DNA of 64,000 bases from Candidatus Woesearchaeota archaeon (GCA_018303445.1 JAGVYE010000003.1:2366-66365); one strand, 5' to 3'; positions 3,299 through 63,046 are shown, counted from the stretch's first letter. The notes: generated from the sequence alone by a model not told the origin. Numbers and translations are program-made.

Positions 3299-3451
3299 GC
3301 GAATGAATGACGGCGGGCCGTTCGCTCAGTGGTTTTCTGGCGGTAATCTCAATATAAAAATAAAATTTTTTATCAGAAGAAAACCAACTGTCAACAGATG
3401 CATAGCAATAGCAGTTCCTCGCAAGCATCTTGGCCTTGCCGTCATTCATGG
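3299..3451. repeat. Intergenic element flanked by a 12-bp perfect inverted repeat (atgaatgacggc / gccgtcattcat) with a nested imperfect IR (cagtggttttctgg / cagaagaaaaccaactg). Rod-like ~150-nt structure
   Basis: Direct reading of the sequence at 3301-3314 vs 3438-3451, and 3328-3341 vs 3375-3391. No ORF inside. Confidence 0.5.
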
Positions 3452-3721
3452 AGTTGAATAGTATCAGATTTAAGAGGTTGTTGCGAAACTCTTCATTAGT
3501 GCTGGTGAGAGGCTTGTTCCGCCTCTCAACTTCGCTCCGCTCAAGTCGAATTGCTGAACTCTACAAGGTTAGCTTCATTGGCAAATTATACCCCAGCACA
3601 GACTTTCGCAACAACCTCTAAATTTGGCATTATTGAAAAGTTCTCGTTTCACTTGTGGAGCACCAGCTACGACCTAGACTATTTCTTTGAAGGCTGACGT
3701 TCCCCGGATGGGGTAACCCCC

Positions 3722-9951: not shown

Positions 9952-12240
9952 ATGAAAACTACTGCTGAAGATAATCTGGACCATTCTAAAATAAAGAATG
10001 AAAAGAAAGGGCAGGCAAATCAGAAATTAGTAGTAATCAGTATCTTTGCAGTAGTATTATTAGGAGCGCTGATAGTGTTATATTTCTTTACGGACACTTT
10101 TGTGGGAAGAGCGTTTCAAACTGGAATTAGGAATTCTGCCGGATTGGATTTCAGCGGCGGAATAGAAAATCTGCCTTTAAATGACGAGGGAACTTATCCT
10201 CTTAAAGCTAATGTTGATCAAGCCGTGAGAATCAATGCGATTAATTTTGTGATGAAGTATGATTCTGCCAAGTTATCAGTTAATAATTGCCAGCAGCGAG
10301 TTCAGCAAACTTTAGATAGTTATTTTAATTATAATCTCATTAATGATTTATCCTTAATACGAGAAGTTTCCTGTGATCCAGCAGGAAAAATAACGGTTAA
10401 TTATGTTTTTGCCTGTGATCCAACCAACAATTGCAATAATTTACCGGCTCCTGCTGCCTCCGGAGATATTTTCTTGGCAATATTTCTTTTTACTGGCATT
10501 GCGGCAGGAACTGCGGACGTTTATTTTGAATCATTAGACATTTATGATGTTAATTCACTGCCTGGAACTACGGCAGTTTCATTAAATTCTCCGACGAGAA
10601 CTAGCCCGGATAGAATTACTGTACGTCAGACTACGGAAACTGTTGATCAATCACTAGCTTGCACTAGTTCTAATGACTGTTCGACAGGACAAACATGCAG
10701 CGGCGGTATTTGTATTTCACCCCGTTGCGGCAATGGCGTACTTGAAGTAATAGAACAGTGCGATGATGGAAATACTGCTGGAGATGACGGCTGTTCTTCA
10801 ACCTGTCAAATTTATGAAGCAGGATGGCTATGTAATACACCCGGTCAGCTCTGCCAAAAATTATGCGGCAATGGGGTTGTTGAAGTTGCAGCTAGTGAAT
10901 GGTGTGATGATGGAAATAATGCCAATGGCGATGGCTGCACTCGTACTTGTCAAATGGAGAACGGATATGTTTGTCCAAGAAGAGGCGGAGTATGTATTTT
11001 AAGTACACAGGCTTGCGGCGACGGAGTAGTGCAAGTTGGTGAATATTGCGATGATGGAAATGCCGCTTCAAGTGATGGCTGCGCAGCTTGTCAAATTGAA
11101 AATGGATATACTTGCAGTGGCAGCCCTTCTGCTTGTGTTCGTATGGGGGAGACCACTTATATAAATTTTTGTGGCGATGGAATAATCCAAGACAATGGCG
11201 GGAATGGAATTGCCGGAGATATCGATGATGAACAATGTGATGACGGCAATCGAAATGATAATGATGCTTGCACTAATATTTGCCGCACTGCCTTTTGCGG
11301 TGATGGAGTTGTCAGAGCTGGAACAGAACAATGCGATGACGGCAATCGAAATGATAATGACGCTTGCACTAATATTTGCCGCACTGCCTTTTGCGGCGAT
11401 GGAGTTGTCAGAGCTGGAACAGAACAATGTGATGACGGCAATATGGTAAATACTGATGGCTGCACCACTCAATGTCGTACAAATGTTTGCGGTGATGGAA
11501 TTGTTTGGATAAGAACAGAATATTGCGATGATGGCAATCTAGTGAATGACGATGGTTGTTCAAGTACCTGTCAAATTGAGTTAATAGGCCGCTGCGGTGA
11601 TGGAACAGTTAACCCTAATGAACAATGTGACGATGGGAATCAAAATGATAATGACGCTTGCACTAATATTTGTCGCACTGCCTTTTGCGGCGATGGAGTT
11701 GTCAGAGCTGGAACAGAACAATGTGATGACAGCAATCCTGCAAATTATGATGATTGTACCAATGAATGTCGTATTGCCGTTTGCGGTGATGGAATTACCA
11801 GAGCTGGAACAGAACAATGTGATGATAGGAATACTATTACTGAAATATGTGCTTATGGTCAACGATCGTGTACTGTCTGTAATAATCAATGTCAATCTGT
11901 TGCTGGCGCAGCGACGTATTGTGGTGACGGAATTATACAAACGGGTGAACAGTGCGATGATGGAAATGCAGTTCTTGGTGATGGATGTTCAGCAACGTGC
12001 AGCGTAGAATCTAGTGGTGCTGGGTTATTGGGCGATGTAAATGGCGATGAGGTTGTAGATTTAGCTGATGCTATTGATGTTGCCAGATTTGATTTAGGTA
12101 TTTCGACTAGTCTAACATTCAATGCAGCGCGGGGAGATGTGACCTGTAATAATGGAGCAGTAGACATTGCTGATGCTATACTTATTGCCAGGGTTGATTT
12201 AGGAATTCCTGGATTTAATATCCCTAATTCCTGTTCATGA
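9952..12240 (+). CDS. Scaffoldin-like surface protein: N-terminal TM anchor, Ig/cohesin-like domain, ~14 Myxococcus-type Cys-rich repeats (C-x-DGN-x6-C-x3-C), C-terminal dockerin
   Basis: TM: VVISIFAVVLLGALIVLYFF. Repeats: CDDGNxxxxDxC(T/S)xxC..CGDG. C-terminal dockerin: GDVNGDEVVDLADAIDVARFDLG + GDVTCNNGAVDIADAILIARVDLG. Confidence 0.75.
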   Translation: MKTTAEDNLDHSKIKNEKKGQANQKLVVISIFAVVLLGALIVLYFFTDTFVGRAFQTGIRNSAGLDFSGGIENLPLNDEGTYPLKANVDQAVRINAINFVMKYDSAKLSVNNCQQRVQQTLDSYFNYNLINDLSLIREVSCDPAGKITVNYVFACDPTNNCNNLPAPAASGDIFLAIFLFTGIAAGTADVYFESLDIYDVNSLPGTTAVSLNSPTRTSPDRITVRQTTETVDQSLACTSSNDCSTGQTCSGGICISPRCGNGVLEVIEQCDDGNTAGDDGCSSTCQIYEAGWLCNTPGQLCQKLCGNGVVEVAASEWCDDGNNANGDGCTRTCQMENGYVCPRRGGVCILSTQACGDGVVQVGEYCDDGNAASSDGCAACQIENGYTCSGSPSACVRMGETTYINFCGDGIIQDNGGNGIAGDIDDEQCDDGNRNDNDACTNICRTAFCGDGVVRAGTEQCDDGNRNDNDACTNICRTAFCGDGVVRAGTEQCDDGNMVNTDGCTTQCRTNVCGDGIVWIRTEYCDDGNLVNDDGCSSTCQIELIGRCGDGTVNPNEQCDDGNQNDNDACTNICRTAFCGDGVVRAGTEQCDDSNPANYDDCTNECRIAVCGDGITRAGTEQCDDRNTITEICAYGQRSCTVCNNQCQSVAGAATYCGDGIIQTGEQCDDGNAVLGDGCSATCSVESSGAGLLGDVNGDEVVDLADAIDVARFDLGISTSLTFNAARGDVTCNNGAVDIADAILIARVDLGIPGFNIPNSCS
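11233..11814 (+). repeat. Tandem 96-bp (32-codon) repeats inside 9952..12240. Three copies are almost identical at DNA level (11233-11328, 11329-11424, 11623-11718) and others are diverged
   Basis: Repeat unit caatgtgatgacggcaatcgaaatgataatga(t/c)gcttgcactaatatttgccgcactgccttttgcgg(t/c)gatggagttgtcagagctggaacagaa. Confidence 0.85.
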
Positions 12241-13859: not shown

Positions 13860-16331
13860 ATGAAAGTGAAGAGAATAAAAAAAGGCAAGCATAGTGTTTT
13901 ACGGTACAAGTCATTGCCTCCTCACACCAATGAAGCAGTTCCTGTTACACATCTGGGAGAAGTAAGCAAACCTTTTATTATTGTTGCCATTACTATTGCT
14001 GCTATTGTTTTGTTAGCGGTATTCTTAATGTTTAAAGATCAGATTGTTGGAAAAGCGTTTTTTGTGGCTGGTGTAGTAGATACAGCAGGCATCGCAAATC
14101 CTGGTTCAGTTTTGGAGAATACGCCTTTTTCTTTGCTGGTTAGAGCTAACATTGGAACGAAAGAAACAACAGGCATAGAATTTGAATTTCCTTTGCCTAC
14201 AGGATTACGTTGCCGAGTGGCAAATCCAATTGAGAATTTGTTGGGATGGAATGCCCAAAATGGGGCGCTGCTAGAGGAAGCAACGTGCGTGAATAACGTG
14301 GTGCATTTCCGTTATCTTACCGTGAATGGGCAAGAAGCGAAGAGAGGAGAGTTTGATATTGCACGAATTCATGTTGAAGGCGCAGCGGCAGGAACATACA
14401 CTTCAACTTTCCGTCTTTTTAATATTATTAATCTTGCTACTCCTCAAGGCGATATCATTAGCAATGGGTTGGTTGATCCTCTCGTTGTACGACAAGTGGG
14501 ATTCTGTCAGGATAATAGCCAATGCCAGCAAGGAGTATGTAATACGCAAACGAATCGATGTGCGCAATGTGTTGCTGATGCGCAATGCAGTGGAACTACG
14601 CCGATTTGTAATACCCAAACTAACCTGTGTGAAGCTCGTGCGCCTGCCTGTGGCAATCAGCAAATTGATGTAACAGAACAATGCGATGATGGTAATACTG
14701 CAAATGGAGATGGTTGTTCAAGCACTTGTCAAAGAGAAGCACCTCCAGAAATAACTTATCGCGTCAATTGTCCTCAAGATAATATTTCTATAGGTCAAAC
14801 AACAACGTGTGAAATTATTTTAAATCAGGCCGTAACGGAAACATACGGAGAACAATTTACGATTTCCGCTCCTGGATTTACGGCAGCAACTCCATTTATT
14901 GAAGGTGTTACAGGTATTACTGCATCTTCGGCAGGAATTGGAGGAACAACCCTTCTCGTTGAAAGTGATCACTTAACGAGCCGAGGTCAAGCGGCAGGTG
15001 TCGTGGCTCGGTTTACACTTCGCGCGGGAAATGCGGGAGGAATATACACAGTCTCTTTGAGCAACTTAGTCTTGGGAAGTTCTGCTACTTCTGATATGAT
15101 AACAATTTTAGCAGCGGAAAGAGAATGCAGCGCAACTAATAAAGCAGCATGCCAAGATCGAACATCATGCGAAGCTACACTTGTCGGCGGATATTGGTAT
15201 AATAATCAATGCAATACCCAACCGGAATGCCGCGTCAATAATTTAGCTGGCTGTCGAACACAAGCACAGTGTGAAGCGACAGCTATTGGCGGCCGATGGA
15301 ATGCGGCAACAAGCACCTGCAGTGCAGCGCCAACATGCAGCCCAACTAATCTGGCTGTGTGCACACAAACAAACTGTGTTACTGTTGGTCAAGGAGTTTG
15401 GAATACAACGGCAAGCAGCTGTGATACAGCAGTTGAAATTTGTAATGATGGACAAGATAATGATCAAGATACTCAAGTAGATTGCGTCGATACGGAATGC
15501 AGAGGAAGAGCCGGTGCCAATGGCGCTCTCTGTTGCCAAGCAGTAGCTGATTGTCGAGAAGGACAAGAGTGTCAAGCAAATCAGTGTAGAACGGTAACAA
15601 TCCAAACAACAACAACTTCTTCGTCTGGCGGAGGCGGTGGCGGAGGAGGCGGAGGCGGTGGTTGCGTTTCCAATTGGCAATGTGATCTTTGGAGTTACTG
15701 TAACTCTACTTTGCAGAAATCGCGAACTTGCATAGATTTGCGAAAATGTATCCAAAAGCCAAAATTAGAAGTTCAATCCTGTCCTGCTTGTGAAGAATCA
15801 TGGTTGTGTACGTCGTGGAGTCAATGTTTTGGCAGTACAAAAACGAGAACGTGTACTGATGAGCATAAATGTGGAACGTTGCGGCTAAAACCATCAGAGC
15901 AGCAGCAATGCACACTTCCAAGTTCGCAATTGCCTGTGCAACAGGTACAGCAGCCTCAACAGTTTTATGTGCCTCCCCCTTCAGTTCCATATCAAGCTCC
16001 ACAAGTACAAAAGCCAAGCGTCTTTAGGCAATATCAAACGTGGTTTATCAGTGGGGCTTCTCTCTTACTTTTAGTTATAATCTTAGGCCTGGTCTGGCGT
16101 TTAACTCATCGTCCTCAGCAACTGGGTTATAATATCGGTGAATTGAAAGAATGGATTAAACAAGAACAAGCAATGGGAACTTCAAACGAAGACATTAAAG
16201 AAATCCTCTCTGATAAAACGGGATGGACAAAAGAAGAAATTGAAAAGGCCTTTGAAAGTTTAGGAAGCGCGCTCACAGAAGAACAACTTCAATCTTCAGA
16301 AGAACAAATCATGGAAATAGGGGGGAAATAA
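13860..16331 (+). CDS. Giant membrane-anchored surface protein: N-terminal signal anchor, Ig-like domain, Myxococcus-type Cys-rich repeats, poly-Gly linker, 2x W-C-W 6-Cys module, Gln/Pro-rich stalk, C-terminal TM and conserved cytoplasmic tail
   Basis: TM1: FIIVAITIAAIVLLAVFLMF. Motif CDDGNTANGDGCSSTCQ. Linker SSSGGGGGGGGGGGG. Modules CVSNWQCDLWSYC.. and CEESWLCTSWSQC... TM2: ISGASLLLLVIILGLVW. Tail: NEDIKEILSDKTGWTKEEIEKAFESLG. Confidence 0.75.
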   Translation: MKVKRIKKGKHSVLRYKSLPPHTNEAVPVTHLGEVSKPFIIVAITIAAIVLLAVFLMFKDQIVGKAFFVAGVVDTAGIANPGSVLENTPFSLLVRANIGTKETTGIEFEFPLPTGLRCRVANPIENLLGWNAQNGALLEEATCVNNVVHFRYLTVNGQEAKRGEFDIARIHVEGAAAGTYTSTFRLFNIINLATPQGDIISNGLVDPLVVRQVGFCQDNSQCQQGVCNTQTNRCAQCVADAQCSGTTPICNTQTNLCEARAPACGNQQIDVTEQCDDGNTANGDGCSSTCQREAPPEITYRVNCPQDNISIGQTTTCEIILNQAVTETYGEQFTISAPGFTAATPFIEGVTGITASSAGIGGTTLLVESDHLTSRGQAAGVVARFTLRAGNAGGIYTVSLSNLVLGSSATSDMITILAAERECSATNKAACQDRTSCEATLVGGYWYNNQCNTQPECRVNNLAGCRTQAQCEATAIGGRWNAATSTCSAAPTCSPTNLAVCTQTNCVTVGQGVWNTTASSCDTAVEICNDGQDNDQDTQVDCVDTECRGRAGANGALCCQAVADCREGQECQANQCRTVTIQTTTTSSSGGGGGGGGGGGGCVSNWQCDLWSYCNSTLQKSRTCIDLRKCIQKPKLEVQSCPACEESWLCTSWSQCFGSTKTRTCTDEHKCGTLRLKPSEQQQCTLPSSQLPVQQVQQPQQFYVPPPSVPYQAPQVQKPSVFRQYQTWFISGASLLLLVIILGLVWRLTHRPQQLGYNIGELKEWIKQEQAMGTSNEDIKEILSDKTGWTKEEIEKAFESLGSALTEEQLQSSEEQIMEIGGK

Positions 16332-61197: not shown

Positions 61198-61334
61198 AGC
61201 CACTTTCCTTTATTTATTCTCTACAAATGTGTGCTCAATTAATCTTGAGTGTGAATAGAGGTGATCCAAATTCCTGTTAGTTTAAGAAGTTGCGATTGTA
61301 CATGGGAAAAGGTCCATCATTTTGATTCAGAGTA

Positions 61335-62902
61335 ACTCCCGTTGATCCTGCGGGAGATTGCTGCTATGGGAGTTCGATTAAGCCATGCAAGTCAGAGGGC
61401 TGTCGCAAGACAGCACAGGCTGAATGCTCAGTAACACGTCAATAATCTGCCCTAAGGCTCAGGATAACCATGGGAAACTGTGGATAAAACTGGATAAGGG
61501 ATTGGTACTGGAATGTCCTTTCCTCTAAAGGTAACACCTTAGGATGAGTTGGCGGCCGATTAGCTTGTTGGTAGGGTAACGGCCTACCAAGGCAACGATC
61601 GGTACGGGCCGTGAGAGCGGTAGCCCGGAGAGGGGTACTGAGACACTGACCCCAGCCCTACGGGGTGCAGCAGGCGCGAAAACTTTACAATGTACGTAAG
61701 TGCGATAAGGGAACTCCCAGTGCTCATGCATAAGCATGGGCTTTTGCCAAGCGCAAATAACTTGGAGAATAAGTGGTGGGTAAGACGGGTGCCAGCCGCC
61801 GCGGTAACACCTGCGCCACGAGTGGCAATCGCTTTTATTGGGCCTAAAGCGTTCGTAGCCGGATGAGAAAGTCTTGAGTGAAATCGTTGCGCTTAACAAA
61901 ACGGCGCGCTTGAGATACTACTTATCTTGGGACCGGGAAGCGTTAGGGGTATTCCTGAGGGAGCGGTAAAATGCAATAATCTCAGAAGGACCACCTGTGG
62001 CGAAGGCGCCTAACGAGAACGGGTTCGACGGTGAGGAACGAAAGCTAGGGGAGCAAACCGGATTAGATTCTGGGTCTTTTTGTTGTTGTATAGGTTATTA
62101 TTTTGTCTGTTTGCGAAATTTACGATGATAAAATAAACTGATCAAAGGGCACCAGCTAATTACCCGAGTAGTCCTAGCTGTAAACGCTGTGTACTAGATG
62201 TTGCATATTCTTCGTGAATGTGCAGTGTCGGAGTGAAGACATTAAGTACACCGCCTGGGAAGTACGGTCGCAAGGCTGAAACTTAAAGGAATTGGCGGGA
62301 GAGCACCACAAGGGGTGCGGCGTGCGGTTTAATTTAACTCAACGCAGTGCATCTCACCAGTAGCGACGGCAGAATGATGGTCAGTCTGAAGGGCTTACCA
62401 AACGAGCCGAGAGGTAGTGCATGGCCGTCGTCAGCTCGTGCCGTGAGGTGTCCTCTTAAGTGAGGTAACGAGCGAGACCCATACCTATAATTGCCAGCGG
62501 GTGCTACGGCATGACCGGGCACATTATAGGGACTGCCTGGGAAACCAGGAGGAAGGTGTGGGCAACGGTAGGTCTGTACGCTCCGAATCTACTGGGCTAC
62601 ACGCGCGCAACAATGGCGAGAACAATGGGATGCAACACCGAAAGGTGAAGCTAAACCTCCAAATCTCGTCTTAGTCTAGATTGAGGGTTGTAACTCACCC
62701 TCATGACACCGGAATCCCTAGTAATCGGGCTTCAACATGGCCCGGTGAATATGTCCCTGCTCTTTGCACACACCGCCCGTCAAACCAACCGAGTTGGGTC
62801 TAGGTGAGATGTATCTTTGAGGTATATCGAATCTAGATTCGGTGAGGTGGGTTAAGTCGTCACAAGGTAGCCGTAGGGGAACCTACGGCTGGATCACCTC
62901 CT
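61335..62902 (+). rRNA. 16S rRNA (archaeal) with a ~93-nt insertion at 62069..62161
   Basis: 5' end TCCCGTTGATCCTGCGGGAG. Archaeal 515-region CAGCCGCCGCGGTAACACC. 3' end GGATCACCTCCT. GGATTAGAT|...|ACCCGAGTAGTCC is interrupted by an AT-rich insert. Confidence 0.9.
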
Positions 62903-62960: not shown

Positions 62961-63046
62961 GGGCCCGTAGCTCAGGGGTAGAGCGCCTGCCTTGCAGGTC
63001 AGTCCTAGAACGCAGGAGGCCTCGGGTTCAAATCCCGACGGGTCCA
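62961..63046 (+). tRNA. tRNA-Ala (TGC) in the 16S-23S spacer, with a 14-nt intron (62997..63010) at the canonical 37/38 position
   Basis: GGGCCCGTAGCTCAGGGGTAGAGCGCCTGC-CTTGCA[ggtcagtcctagaa]C-GCAGGAGGCCTCGGGTTCAAATCCCGACGGGTCCA. Cloverleaf intact once the intron is removed. No encoded CCA. Confidence 0.85.

Follow-up and report, generated by a model that had tools for sequence, protein, structure and literature searches.

The 16S rRNA gene of a woesearchaeal rRNA operon is interrupted in the 790 loop of helix 24 by a 93-nt insert that we judge likely to be an archaeal bulge-helix-bulge (BHB) intron, a member of a family with an exon-pairing loop. The reading as a mini-intron, one of two offered by a first-pass annotation of the sequence, is favored by a BHB across the junctions, by covariation in 53 inserts and by the optional occurrence of the insert in relatives. 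The analysis shows the insertion, its ability to fold, conservation with covariation across the family and optional presence among relatives, and from these cleavage by EndA, ligation and a function of the exon-binding loop are inferred.

The window analyzed, a stretch of 64,000 nt, ends in an archaeal rRNA operon that comprises the 16S gene, a spacer tRNA and the first ~800 nt of 23S (Table 1). The host belongs to the Woesearchaeota (DPANN), as its IleRS matches an NCBI 'Candidatus Woesearchaeota archaeon' protein at 100% identity. When the Rfam archaeal SSU model is rerun on 61980–62330, 95 nt occupy the 790 loop as compared to 2 model positions, which corresponds to a 93-nt insertion at U793/A794 and agrees with the ~93 nt near E. 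coli position ~790 claimed initially. The gene reads GGATTAGAT up to 62068, the insert spans 62069–62161, and ACCCGAGTAGTCC follows from 62162; the intron-exon junction sequence is CTAATTACCCGAGTAGTCC. Once 62069–62161 is removed, GGATTAGATACCCGAGTAGTCC is regained, so that the exact restoration of the universal sequence, also claimed by the first-pass annotation, is confirmed. Since T62068 and T62161 are interchangeable, the position of the boundary is uncertain by one base. The insert had further been called AT-rich and ORF-less, and both descriptions hold: its G+C content is 32%, versus 52% in the exons, and no ORF is internal to it, the two short ORFs that touch it (43 and 37 aa) both running into the rRNA exons. 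An assembly artefact was considered and rejected because inserts are found at exactly the same site in at least 52 independent genomes, single-cell genomes included. The 790 loop is located at the ribosomal subunit interface/P site, and a retained 93-nt insert is therefore expected to be harmful.

Table 1. Features of the rRNA operon and of the predicted intron structure, in order of position in the window. Three-digit numbers follow E. coli 16S rRNA.
Feature	Position	Strand	Support
16S rRNA gene (archaeal), host of the insert	61335–62902	+	Rfam RF01959, 1417 bits, model 1–1478
Exon target of X: GCAAAC (778–783, helix 24 5′ strand)	62053–62058	+	
Outer helix H1, 5′ strand CGG (784–786), pairs with 62164–62166	62059–62061	+	100% paired
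Central helix H2, exon strand UUAG (788–791), 4 bp with 62156–62159	62063–62066	+	paired in 53/53
5′ splice-site bulge, A792 U793 / U (intron nt 1), predicted cut after 62068	62067–62069	+	unpaired in MFE and in RNAalifold consensus (53 sequences)
Probable BHB-type intron, 93 nt, E. coli U793/A794, 790 loop of helix 24	62069–62161	+	
Inner helix H3, 5′ strand: CUGG (62070–73) and GUCUUUU (62074–80)	62070–62080	+	MFE
Central hairpin stem S, 5′ strand, pairs with 62124–62126 and 62130–62136	62098–62107	+	
Loop hexamer X (GUUUGC), complement of 62053–62058	62109–62114	+	6/6 perfect, −5.4 kcal/mol
Loop motif Y (UUAC; ACUAC in most homologues), complement of 62168–62171	62120–62123	+	−0.1 kcal/mol
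Central hairpin stem S, 3′ strand: GAU, 3-nt bulge, AAAAUAA	62124–62136	+	
Inner helix H3, 3′ strand: AAAGGGC (62144–50), bulged A62151, CCAG (62152–55)	62144–62155	+	
Central helix H2, intron strand CUAA	62156–62159	+	MFE, alignment, RNAalifold
3′ splice-site bulge, UU / A794, predicted cut after 62161	62160–62162	+	from 4-bp register
Outer helix H1, 3′ strand CCG (796–798), native top of helix 24	62164–62166	+	
Exon target of Y: GUAG (800–803, helix 24 3′ strand)	62168–62171	+	
Spacer tRNA-Ala(UGC) with its own ~14-nt intron, same operon transcript	62961–63046	+	Rfam tRNA, 62.9 bits

In the MFE fold of 62040–62190 the exon sequence GAUUAG pairs with the 3′-terminal CUAAUU of the intron; A792, U793 and the first U of the intron form a 3-nt bulge, followed by helix H3 with one bulged A. 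U62160 and U62161 pair with A787 and G786 in this fold. The resulting 6-bp register of H2 (A787-U, G786-U) is thermodynamically preferred, competes with H1 and abolishes the 3′ bulge. In a canonical BHB the central helix has 4 bp, and each 3-nt bulge is cut between its second and third nucleotides. A fold constrained to this geometry, with a 4-bp H2, spans the junctions and lies 2.4 kcal/mol above the MFE; it contains two 3-nt bulges on opposite strands with the 4-bp helix between them, although the 5–6-bp register competes. The cuts predicted from it, at 62068/62069 and 62161/62162, coincide with the boundaries proposed in the first-pass annotation and join GGAUUAGAU to ACCC exactly. Helices flank both bulges: H3, which starts at intron nucleotide 2, has at least four consecutive pairs in 52 of 53 sequences, and the 3-bp H1 is paired throughout, its pair 784–798 being CG in 51 sequences and GC in 2. 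A mismatch, A787-C795, adjoins the 3′ bulge in the 4-bp register, and the modeled motif appears slightly relaxed by it. RNAalifold, given the 53 sequences, recovers on its own lower helix 24, H2, the 3-nt 5′ bulge and H3. Covariation is unable to test H1 and H2 because they involve invariant exon bases.

As H2 must pair with invariant exon bases, any such intron at this site should end in the complement of AUUAG. On this rationale we scanned one genome per GTDB species with the BHB-constrained 3′ junction pattern YTRRTTACCCNNGTAGTCC. At least 119 loci matched, and at least 52 of these are 16S genes with an insert of 82–144 nt (median 106) at exactly 793/794; ~65 of the 119 listed matches were discarded as chance hits outside 16S genes, mostly bacterial. 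Most of the insert-bearing loci carry the labels Woesearchaeota, Nanoarchaeota or Nanoarchaeia, and single-cell genomes are among their sources. Among the matches listed, the exons are 73–90% identical to the window 16S, the closest intron is that of Woesearchaeota CG_4_10_14_0.2um_33_13 (L075), and the longest member has 144 nt; no homing-endonuclease version at 793/794 was seen among the listed family members. All 52 listed inserts end in CUAAUU, a terminus that was partly imposed by the pattern, although this allowed eight variants. The first intron nucleotide is A in 51 of 53 sequences, the window and L075 having U.

The inner helix H3 occurs as 21 distinct 4-bp helix sequences, and all four pairs carry double changes in about half of the sequences. 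In a MAFFT alignment that was not fitted to structure (A1), 93.7% of the cells are paired according to the proposed structure, as compared to 83.5% in shuffles (0/500), and at most 42% when the partners are slid by 1–3 columns. Double-change cells number 144, against 51 expected. The inserts appear to make up a widespread, conserved and ORF-less family in 16S genes of Woesearchaeota and Nanoarchaeota that is apparently undescribed.

The interiors of the introns are non-random and carry a central hairpin. In the window ten contiguous pairs of stem S flank its loop, and the MFE of the window copy favors a partly different local pairing. Across the family the stem averages 7.3 contiguous pairs versus 3.6 with mismatched partners and reaches at least 5 bp in 41 of 53 introns, and S covaries. 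The apical loop consists of a 6-nt element X, an A-rich linker of 4–11 nt and (A)CUAC, which contains Y. X is the reverse complement of hexamer 778–783 in the exon of the same gene. Thus, exon GCAAAC is matched by X GUUUGC/U, GCAAUC by GAUUGC, GCGAUC by GAUCGU/C, GCGAAC by GUUCGU, GCAAAA by UUUUGC/U and GCGAAU by AUUUGC. The hexamer of the own exon is perfectly complemented in 41 of 53 introns; across 20,000 permutations of the exon labels this number averages 14.4 and never exceeds 27, and shuffled interiors give 3.6. In alignment A1 three of the six X pairs are changed on both sides, namely 780 (AU 32, GC 15), 782 (AU 26, UA 20) and 783 (CG 34, AU 5, UA 1). A G778-U pair is present in 19 sequences, which fits pairing in the sense-strand RNA. 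On an NJ tree calculated with the region masked, exon positions 780, 782 and 783 have changed at least 8, 9 and 5 times, respectively, in intron-bearing lineages; therefore, the covariation of X does not reflect one inherited event.

For Y, 90% of the cells formed by ACUAC and the exon sequence GUAGU (800–804) are paired, and this pairing is untestable by covariation because exon 800–804 is invariant. In the window copy, X is perfect and Y is a degenerate UUAC that pairs weakly; part of X is tied up in a local hairpin in the window MFE. According to the model, X and Y address opposite strands of helix 24 just below H1 and could clamp both. Together, X, Y, S and H1 would close a four-way junction.

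Genes lacking the insert were sought by scanning metagenome contigs for the spliced junction with the A799 signature (ACCCGAG), which returned at least 120 loci. About 40 of the listed loci lie on contigs of more than 2 kb, some of more than 100 kb, and were taken as genomic DNA, i.e. as intron-less genes. Among the matches listed, the nearest intron-bearing relatives of these genes are 92–95% identical in 16S; examples are the intron-less/intron-bearing pairs L208–L063 (93.0%), L182–L075 (92.2%) and L139/L224–L104 (~94.8%). The nearest neighbor of the window overall, again among the matches listed, is the intron-less L208 at 89.8%. On a tree restricted to DNA-derived genes of sufficient length (44 with and 37 without the intron), the distribution requires at least 17 gains or losses; label shuffles on the same tree average 26.8 changes and need no fewer than 19. 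Relatives that lack the insert at 92–95% identity and at least 17 changes show that it is dispensable and has been repeatedly lost or gained.

About 75 of the listed metagenome matches are ~1.43-kb OBEP01/OBAT01 records. OBEP01 accessions are attributed to the collection of Karst et al. (ENA GCA_900214305; PMC12203549), which derives from size-selected SSU rRNA that was reverse-transcribed (10.1101/070771). One such rRNA-derived cDNA, L136 (OBEP010084524.1), lacks the insert and joins GGATTAGAT to ACCC. Over 862 nt it differs at 16 positions from L086, an intron-bearing MAG gene from a different genome (98.1% identity), and 98.1% rather than 100% is the best identity between an RNA-derived sequence and an intron-bearing gene among the matches listed. 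We take L136 as a suggestive sign of insert removal; an intron-less close relative may instead be its source.

The first-pass annotation had offered an expansion segment as the alternative, which would lengthen the 790 loop of the mature 16S rRNA by the 93 nt. DPANN rRNAs are unusual and the insert is conserved in many lineages, as such a segment might be, but the site is a universally conserved functional loop and not a variable region, and a retained segment would need neither the BHB-like junction motif nor its covariation. Relatives at 92–95% identity without the insert, and the uninterrupted loop in cDNA L136, speak against retention as well, and we consider it quite improbable. Bacterial 23S rRNAs contain IVSs that are processed by RNase III and excised without ligation, which leaves the rRNA fragmented. 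The long hairpin formed by the insert resembles these, and a nuclease might likewise excise it and leave 16S rRNA in pieces. A break in the 790 loop would, however, sever a functional site, cDNA L136, from a 98.1% relative, runs through the junction without a break, and archaea have a dedicated pathway of BHB cleavage and ligation whose geometry the insert fits; fragmentation is thus very unlikely.

The insert might also be the remnant of an autocatalytic or protein-mobile element, i.e. a degenerate self-splicing (group I/II) or homing-endonuclease intron. At 82–144 nt the inserts are far too small for a ribozyme core, group I introns typically exceeding 200 nt; there is no Rfam match to group I (RF00028) or group II families at the gathering threshold or at E≤10, and, as no ORF is internal to the insert, no LAGLIDADG ORF either. 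Such an origin is extremely unlikely even though DPANN rRNA genes are known to contain group I introns, where they coexist with BHB introns (PMC6125680; no BHB intron positions are given in its supplement). The 23S gene of L070 contains a genuine one, which the same model detects (3428–3666, minus strand; RF00028, 85.6 bits), and since L070 also carries the 793 intron, BHB-type and group I introns coexist in one operon. Finally, covariation proves pairing but does not distinguish cis from trans, and once excised the intron, possibly as a circle, might serve as an antisense chaperone or guide for other pre-16S molecules by binding their helix 24. Guide RNAs pairing with both exons can reside in archaeal introns, the box C/D guide in the tRNA-Trp intron being a precedent. 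Box C/D RNAs have a C box (RUGAUGA), a D box (CUGA) and antisense elements of at least 8–10 nt next to D/D′. The insert contains no C/D boxes, Rfam C/D matches stay below threshold (14.4 and 9.9 bits, E≥2), and the antisense elements are only 5–6 nt long, short for duplexes acting in trans, and do not adjoin a box D. The loop is, moreover, placed where a four-way junction closes neatly in cis. Action in trans therefore strikes us as unlikely. The C-box-like AUGAUGA in some homologues was dismissed, being made up of strands of the closing helix.

Removal as a BHB intron would proceed as follows. In the primary transcript, exon UUAG (788–791) would pair with the 3′-terminal CUAA of the intron to give a 4-bp central helix flanked by two 3-nt bulges, AU/U and UU/A. 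The top of helix 24 (CGG/CCG) would serve as the outer helix, and CUGG/CCAG plus seven pairs as the inner one. The tRNA-splicing endonuclease EndA would cut both bulges, and the ligase RtcB would join the exons to the universal 790 loop GGAUUAGAUACCC. The apical loop would pair with exon 778–783 and, in most family members, also with exon 800–804, and the four-way junction would prop up the short outer helix and keep both exons aligned. A more tentative proposal, in our view possible rather than probable, is that the intron is more than a passenger and that its hairpin loop is an inbuilt clamp or chaperone for the exons. Much like an internal guide sequence, the loop would pair with both strands of helix 24 (778–783 and 800–804) and keep the 790-loop region in a non-native four-way junction until EndA and RtcB have acted. 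If so, splicing would be a checkpoint in 30S maturation, the intron would have co-evolved with the host rRNA via repeated compensatory changes, and it would provide the first case of a covarying exon-binding element in a protein-spliced (BHB) intron.

A Pfam scan of the 10 window ORFs of plausible size revealed no EndA or RtcB gene. An α4 EndA with an extra loop, which is associated with disrupted tRNA genes, is reported from DPANN lineages, Woesearchaeota being among those surveyed (PMC5829648). The spacer tRNA-Ala of the window has an intron of its own after position 37, where 16 nt compare to 2 in the Rfam model after the anticodon; ARAGORN was unable to type this tRNA (tRNA-???). In relatives the spacer tRNA measures 72 nt (L070, L208) or 94–113 nt (L075, L074, L182, L063), so that the tRNA-Ala intron is polymorphic as well. 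The 16S leader sequence GAGGUGAUCC (61258–61267) perfectly complements the 16S 3′ end GGAUCACCUC (62891–62900, anti-Shine-Dalgarno region), and a cofold pairs the two, which is possibly part of a 16S processing stem; folding of this stem resolved no BHB.

Thirteen loci of 16S introns have been published for archaea, at 374, 548, 722, 781, 803, 901, 908, 919, 978, 1093, 1205, 1213 and 1391; the catalogued introns, almost all from Thermoproteales and Desulfurococcales, have BHB cores, and many are short hairpins (PMC4496867). The first-pass annotation had called the insertion site a known archaeal intron hot-spot. This is correct for the neighborhood (781, 803) only, because 793/794 itself is not among the 13 loci. 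The insert shares with crenarchaeal 16S/23S BHB introns a highly conserved rRNA site, a BHB core, presumed removal by the tRNA-splicing endonuclease, sporadic occurrence among relatives and the interruption of universal primer sites (PMC4496867). It differs from them in its locus, its mesophilic, AT-rich DPANN (Woesearchaeota) host and a conserved interior whose loop covaries with exon 778–783, a feature unmentioned in PMC4496867. Like the internal guide of group I introns or the exon-binding sites of group II introns, a segment of the intron pairs and covaries with both exons; unlike these, the insert has no ribozyme, and its exon targets lie 10–16 nt upstream and 7–11 nt downstream of the junctions rather than at the splice sites. 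The likeness is one of function and not of homology. With pre-tRNA hBHBh′ introns, the insert has in common a 4-bp helix made by the 5′ exon and the 3′ part of the intron and predicted cuts behind the second nucleotide of each 3-nt bulge. It is distinguished from them by its rRNA host, a 3-bp outer helix with an A-C mismatch, greater length and extra structured domains.

The intron extends the archaeal rRNA introns to a new host clade and to a new locus in a loop of critical function, the 790 loop, and its conserved ORF-less family spans Woesearchaeota/Nanoarchaeota 16S genes that are only 73–90% identical to the window. 'Intron-containing 16S rRNA genes' of DPANN have been acknowledged generically, and pipelines routinely remove such insertions (10.1101/2020.05.14.094862). 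A search of open-access papers yielded no description of a 793-site DPANN family, of its BHB motif or of an exon-pairing loop, an absence that is not proof. The covarying intron-exon pairing provides a testable case of a protein-spliced intron that recognizes its own exons, and it bears on the persistence of BHB introns and on proposed BHB/group I links. E. coli 785/787–806 is the site of the most-used universal primers (806R, 785F/805R, Arch806R). As the intron splits this site, intron-bearing Woesearchaeota should escape DNA-based V4 and V3-V4 amplicon surveys.

Several further observations concern the family and its host genes. A is found at E. coli position 799 (window 62167; ACCC(G/C)AG) in all intron-bearing genes listed and in all 173 related 16S sequences, giving rise to a C/A-A mismatch at the 783–799 pair. 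Most archaea have G at this position. As the metagenome pattern, which required ACCCGAG, retrieved many intron-less genes too, A799 is not restricted to genes with the intron and looks like a clade signature. A mimic of exon 785–791, GGA(A)AUUAG, is contained in 22 of 53 introns (e.g. L070, L063, L019 and L026), and neither the window intron nor that of L075 has it. As an alternative conformer or a product-release device, the mimic could rival the exon in pairing with the 3′-terminal CUAAUU. Intron-bearing 16S genes also occur in MAGs labelled as other phyla, namely L003, L020, L039, L070, L101 and L114 (Methanosarcinales), L028 (Aminicenantes), L077 (Altiarchaeota) and L045 (Euryarchaeota SM23-78). 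Their exons are 74–89% identical to the window 16S, within the range of the loci labelled Woesearchaeota/Nanoarchaeota, and the labels probably reflect mis-binning or mislabelling. One MAG, SMAG_U8158, has two different intron-bearing 16S contigs (L104, L105). Elsewhere in the window, two large ORFs of 762 and 823 aa (9952–12240 and 13860–16331, plus strand) encode cysteine-rich acidic repeats (TIGR02232, up to 10 repeats, E=3e-95); their products are probably secreted or surface proteins.
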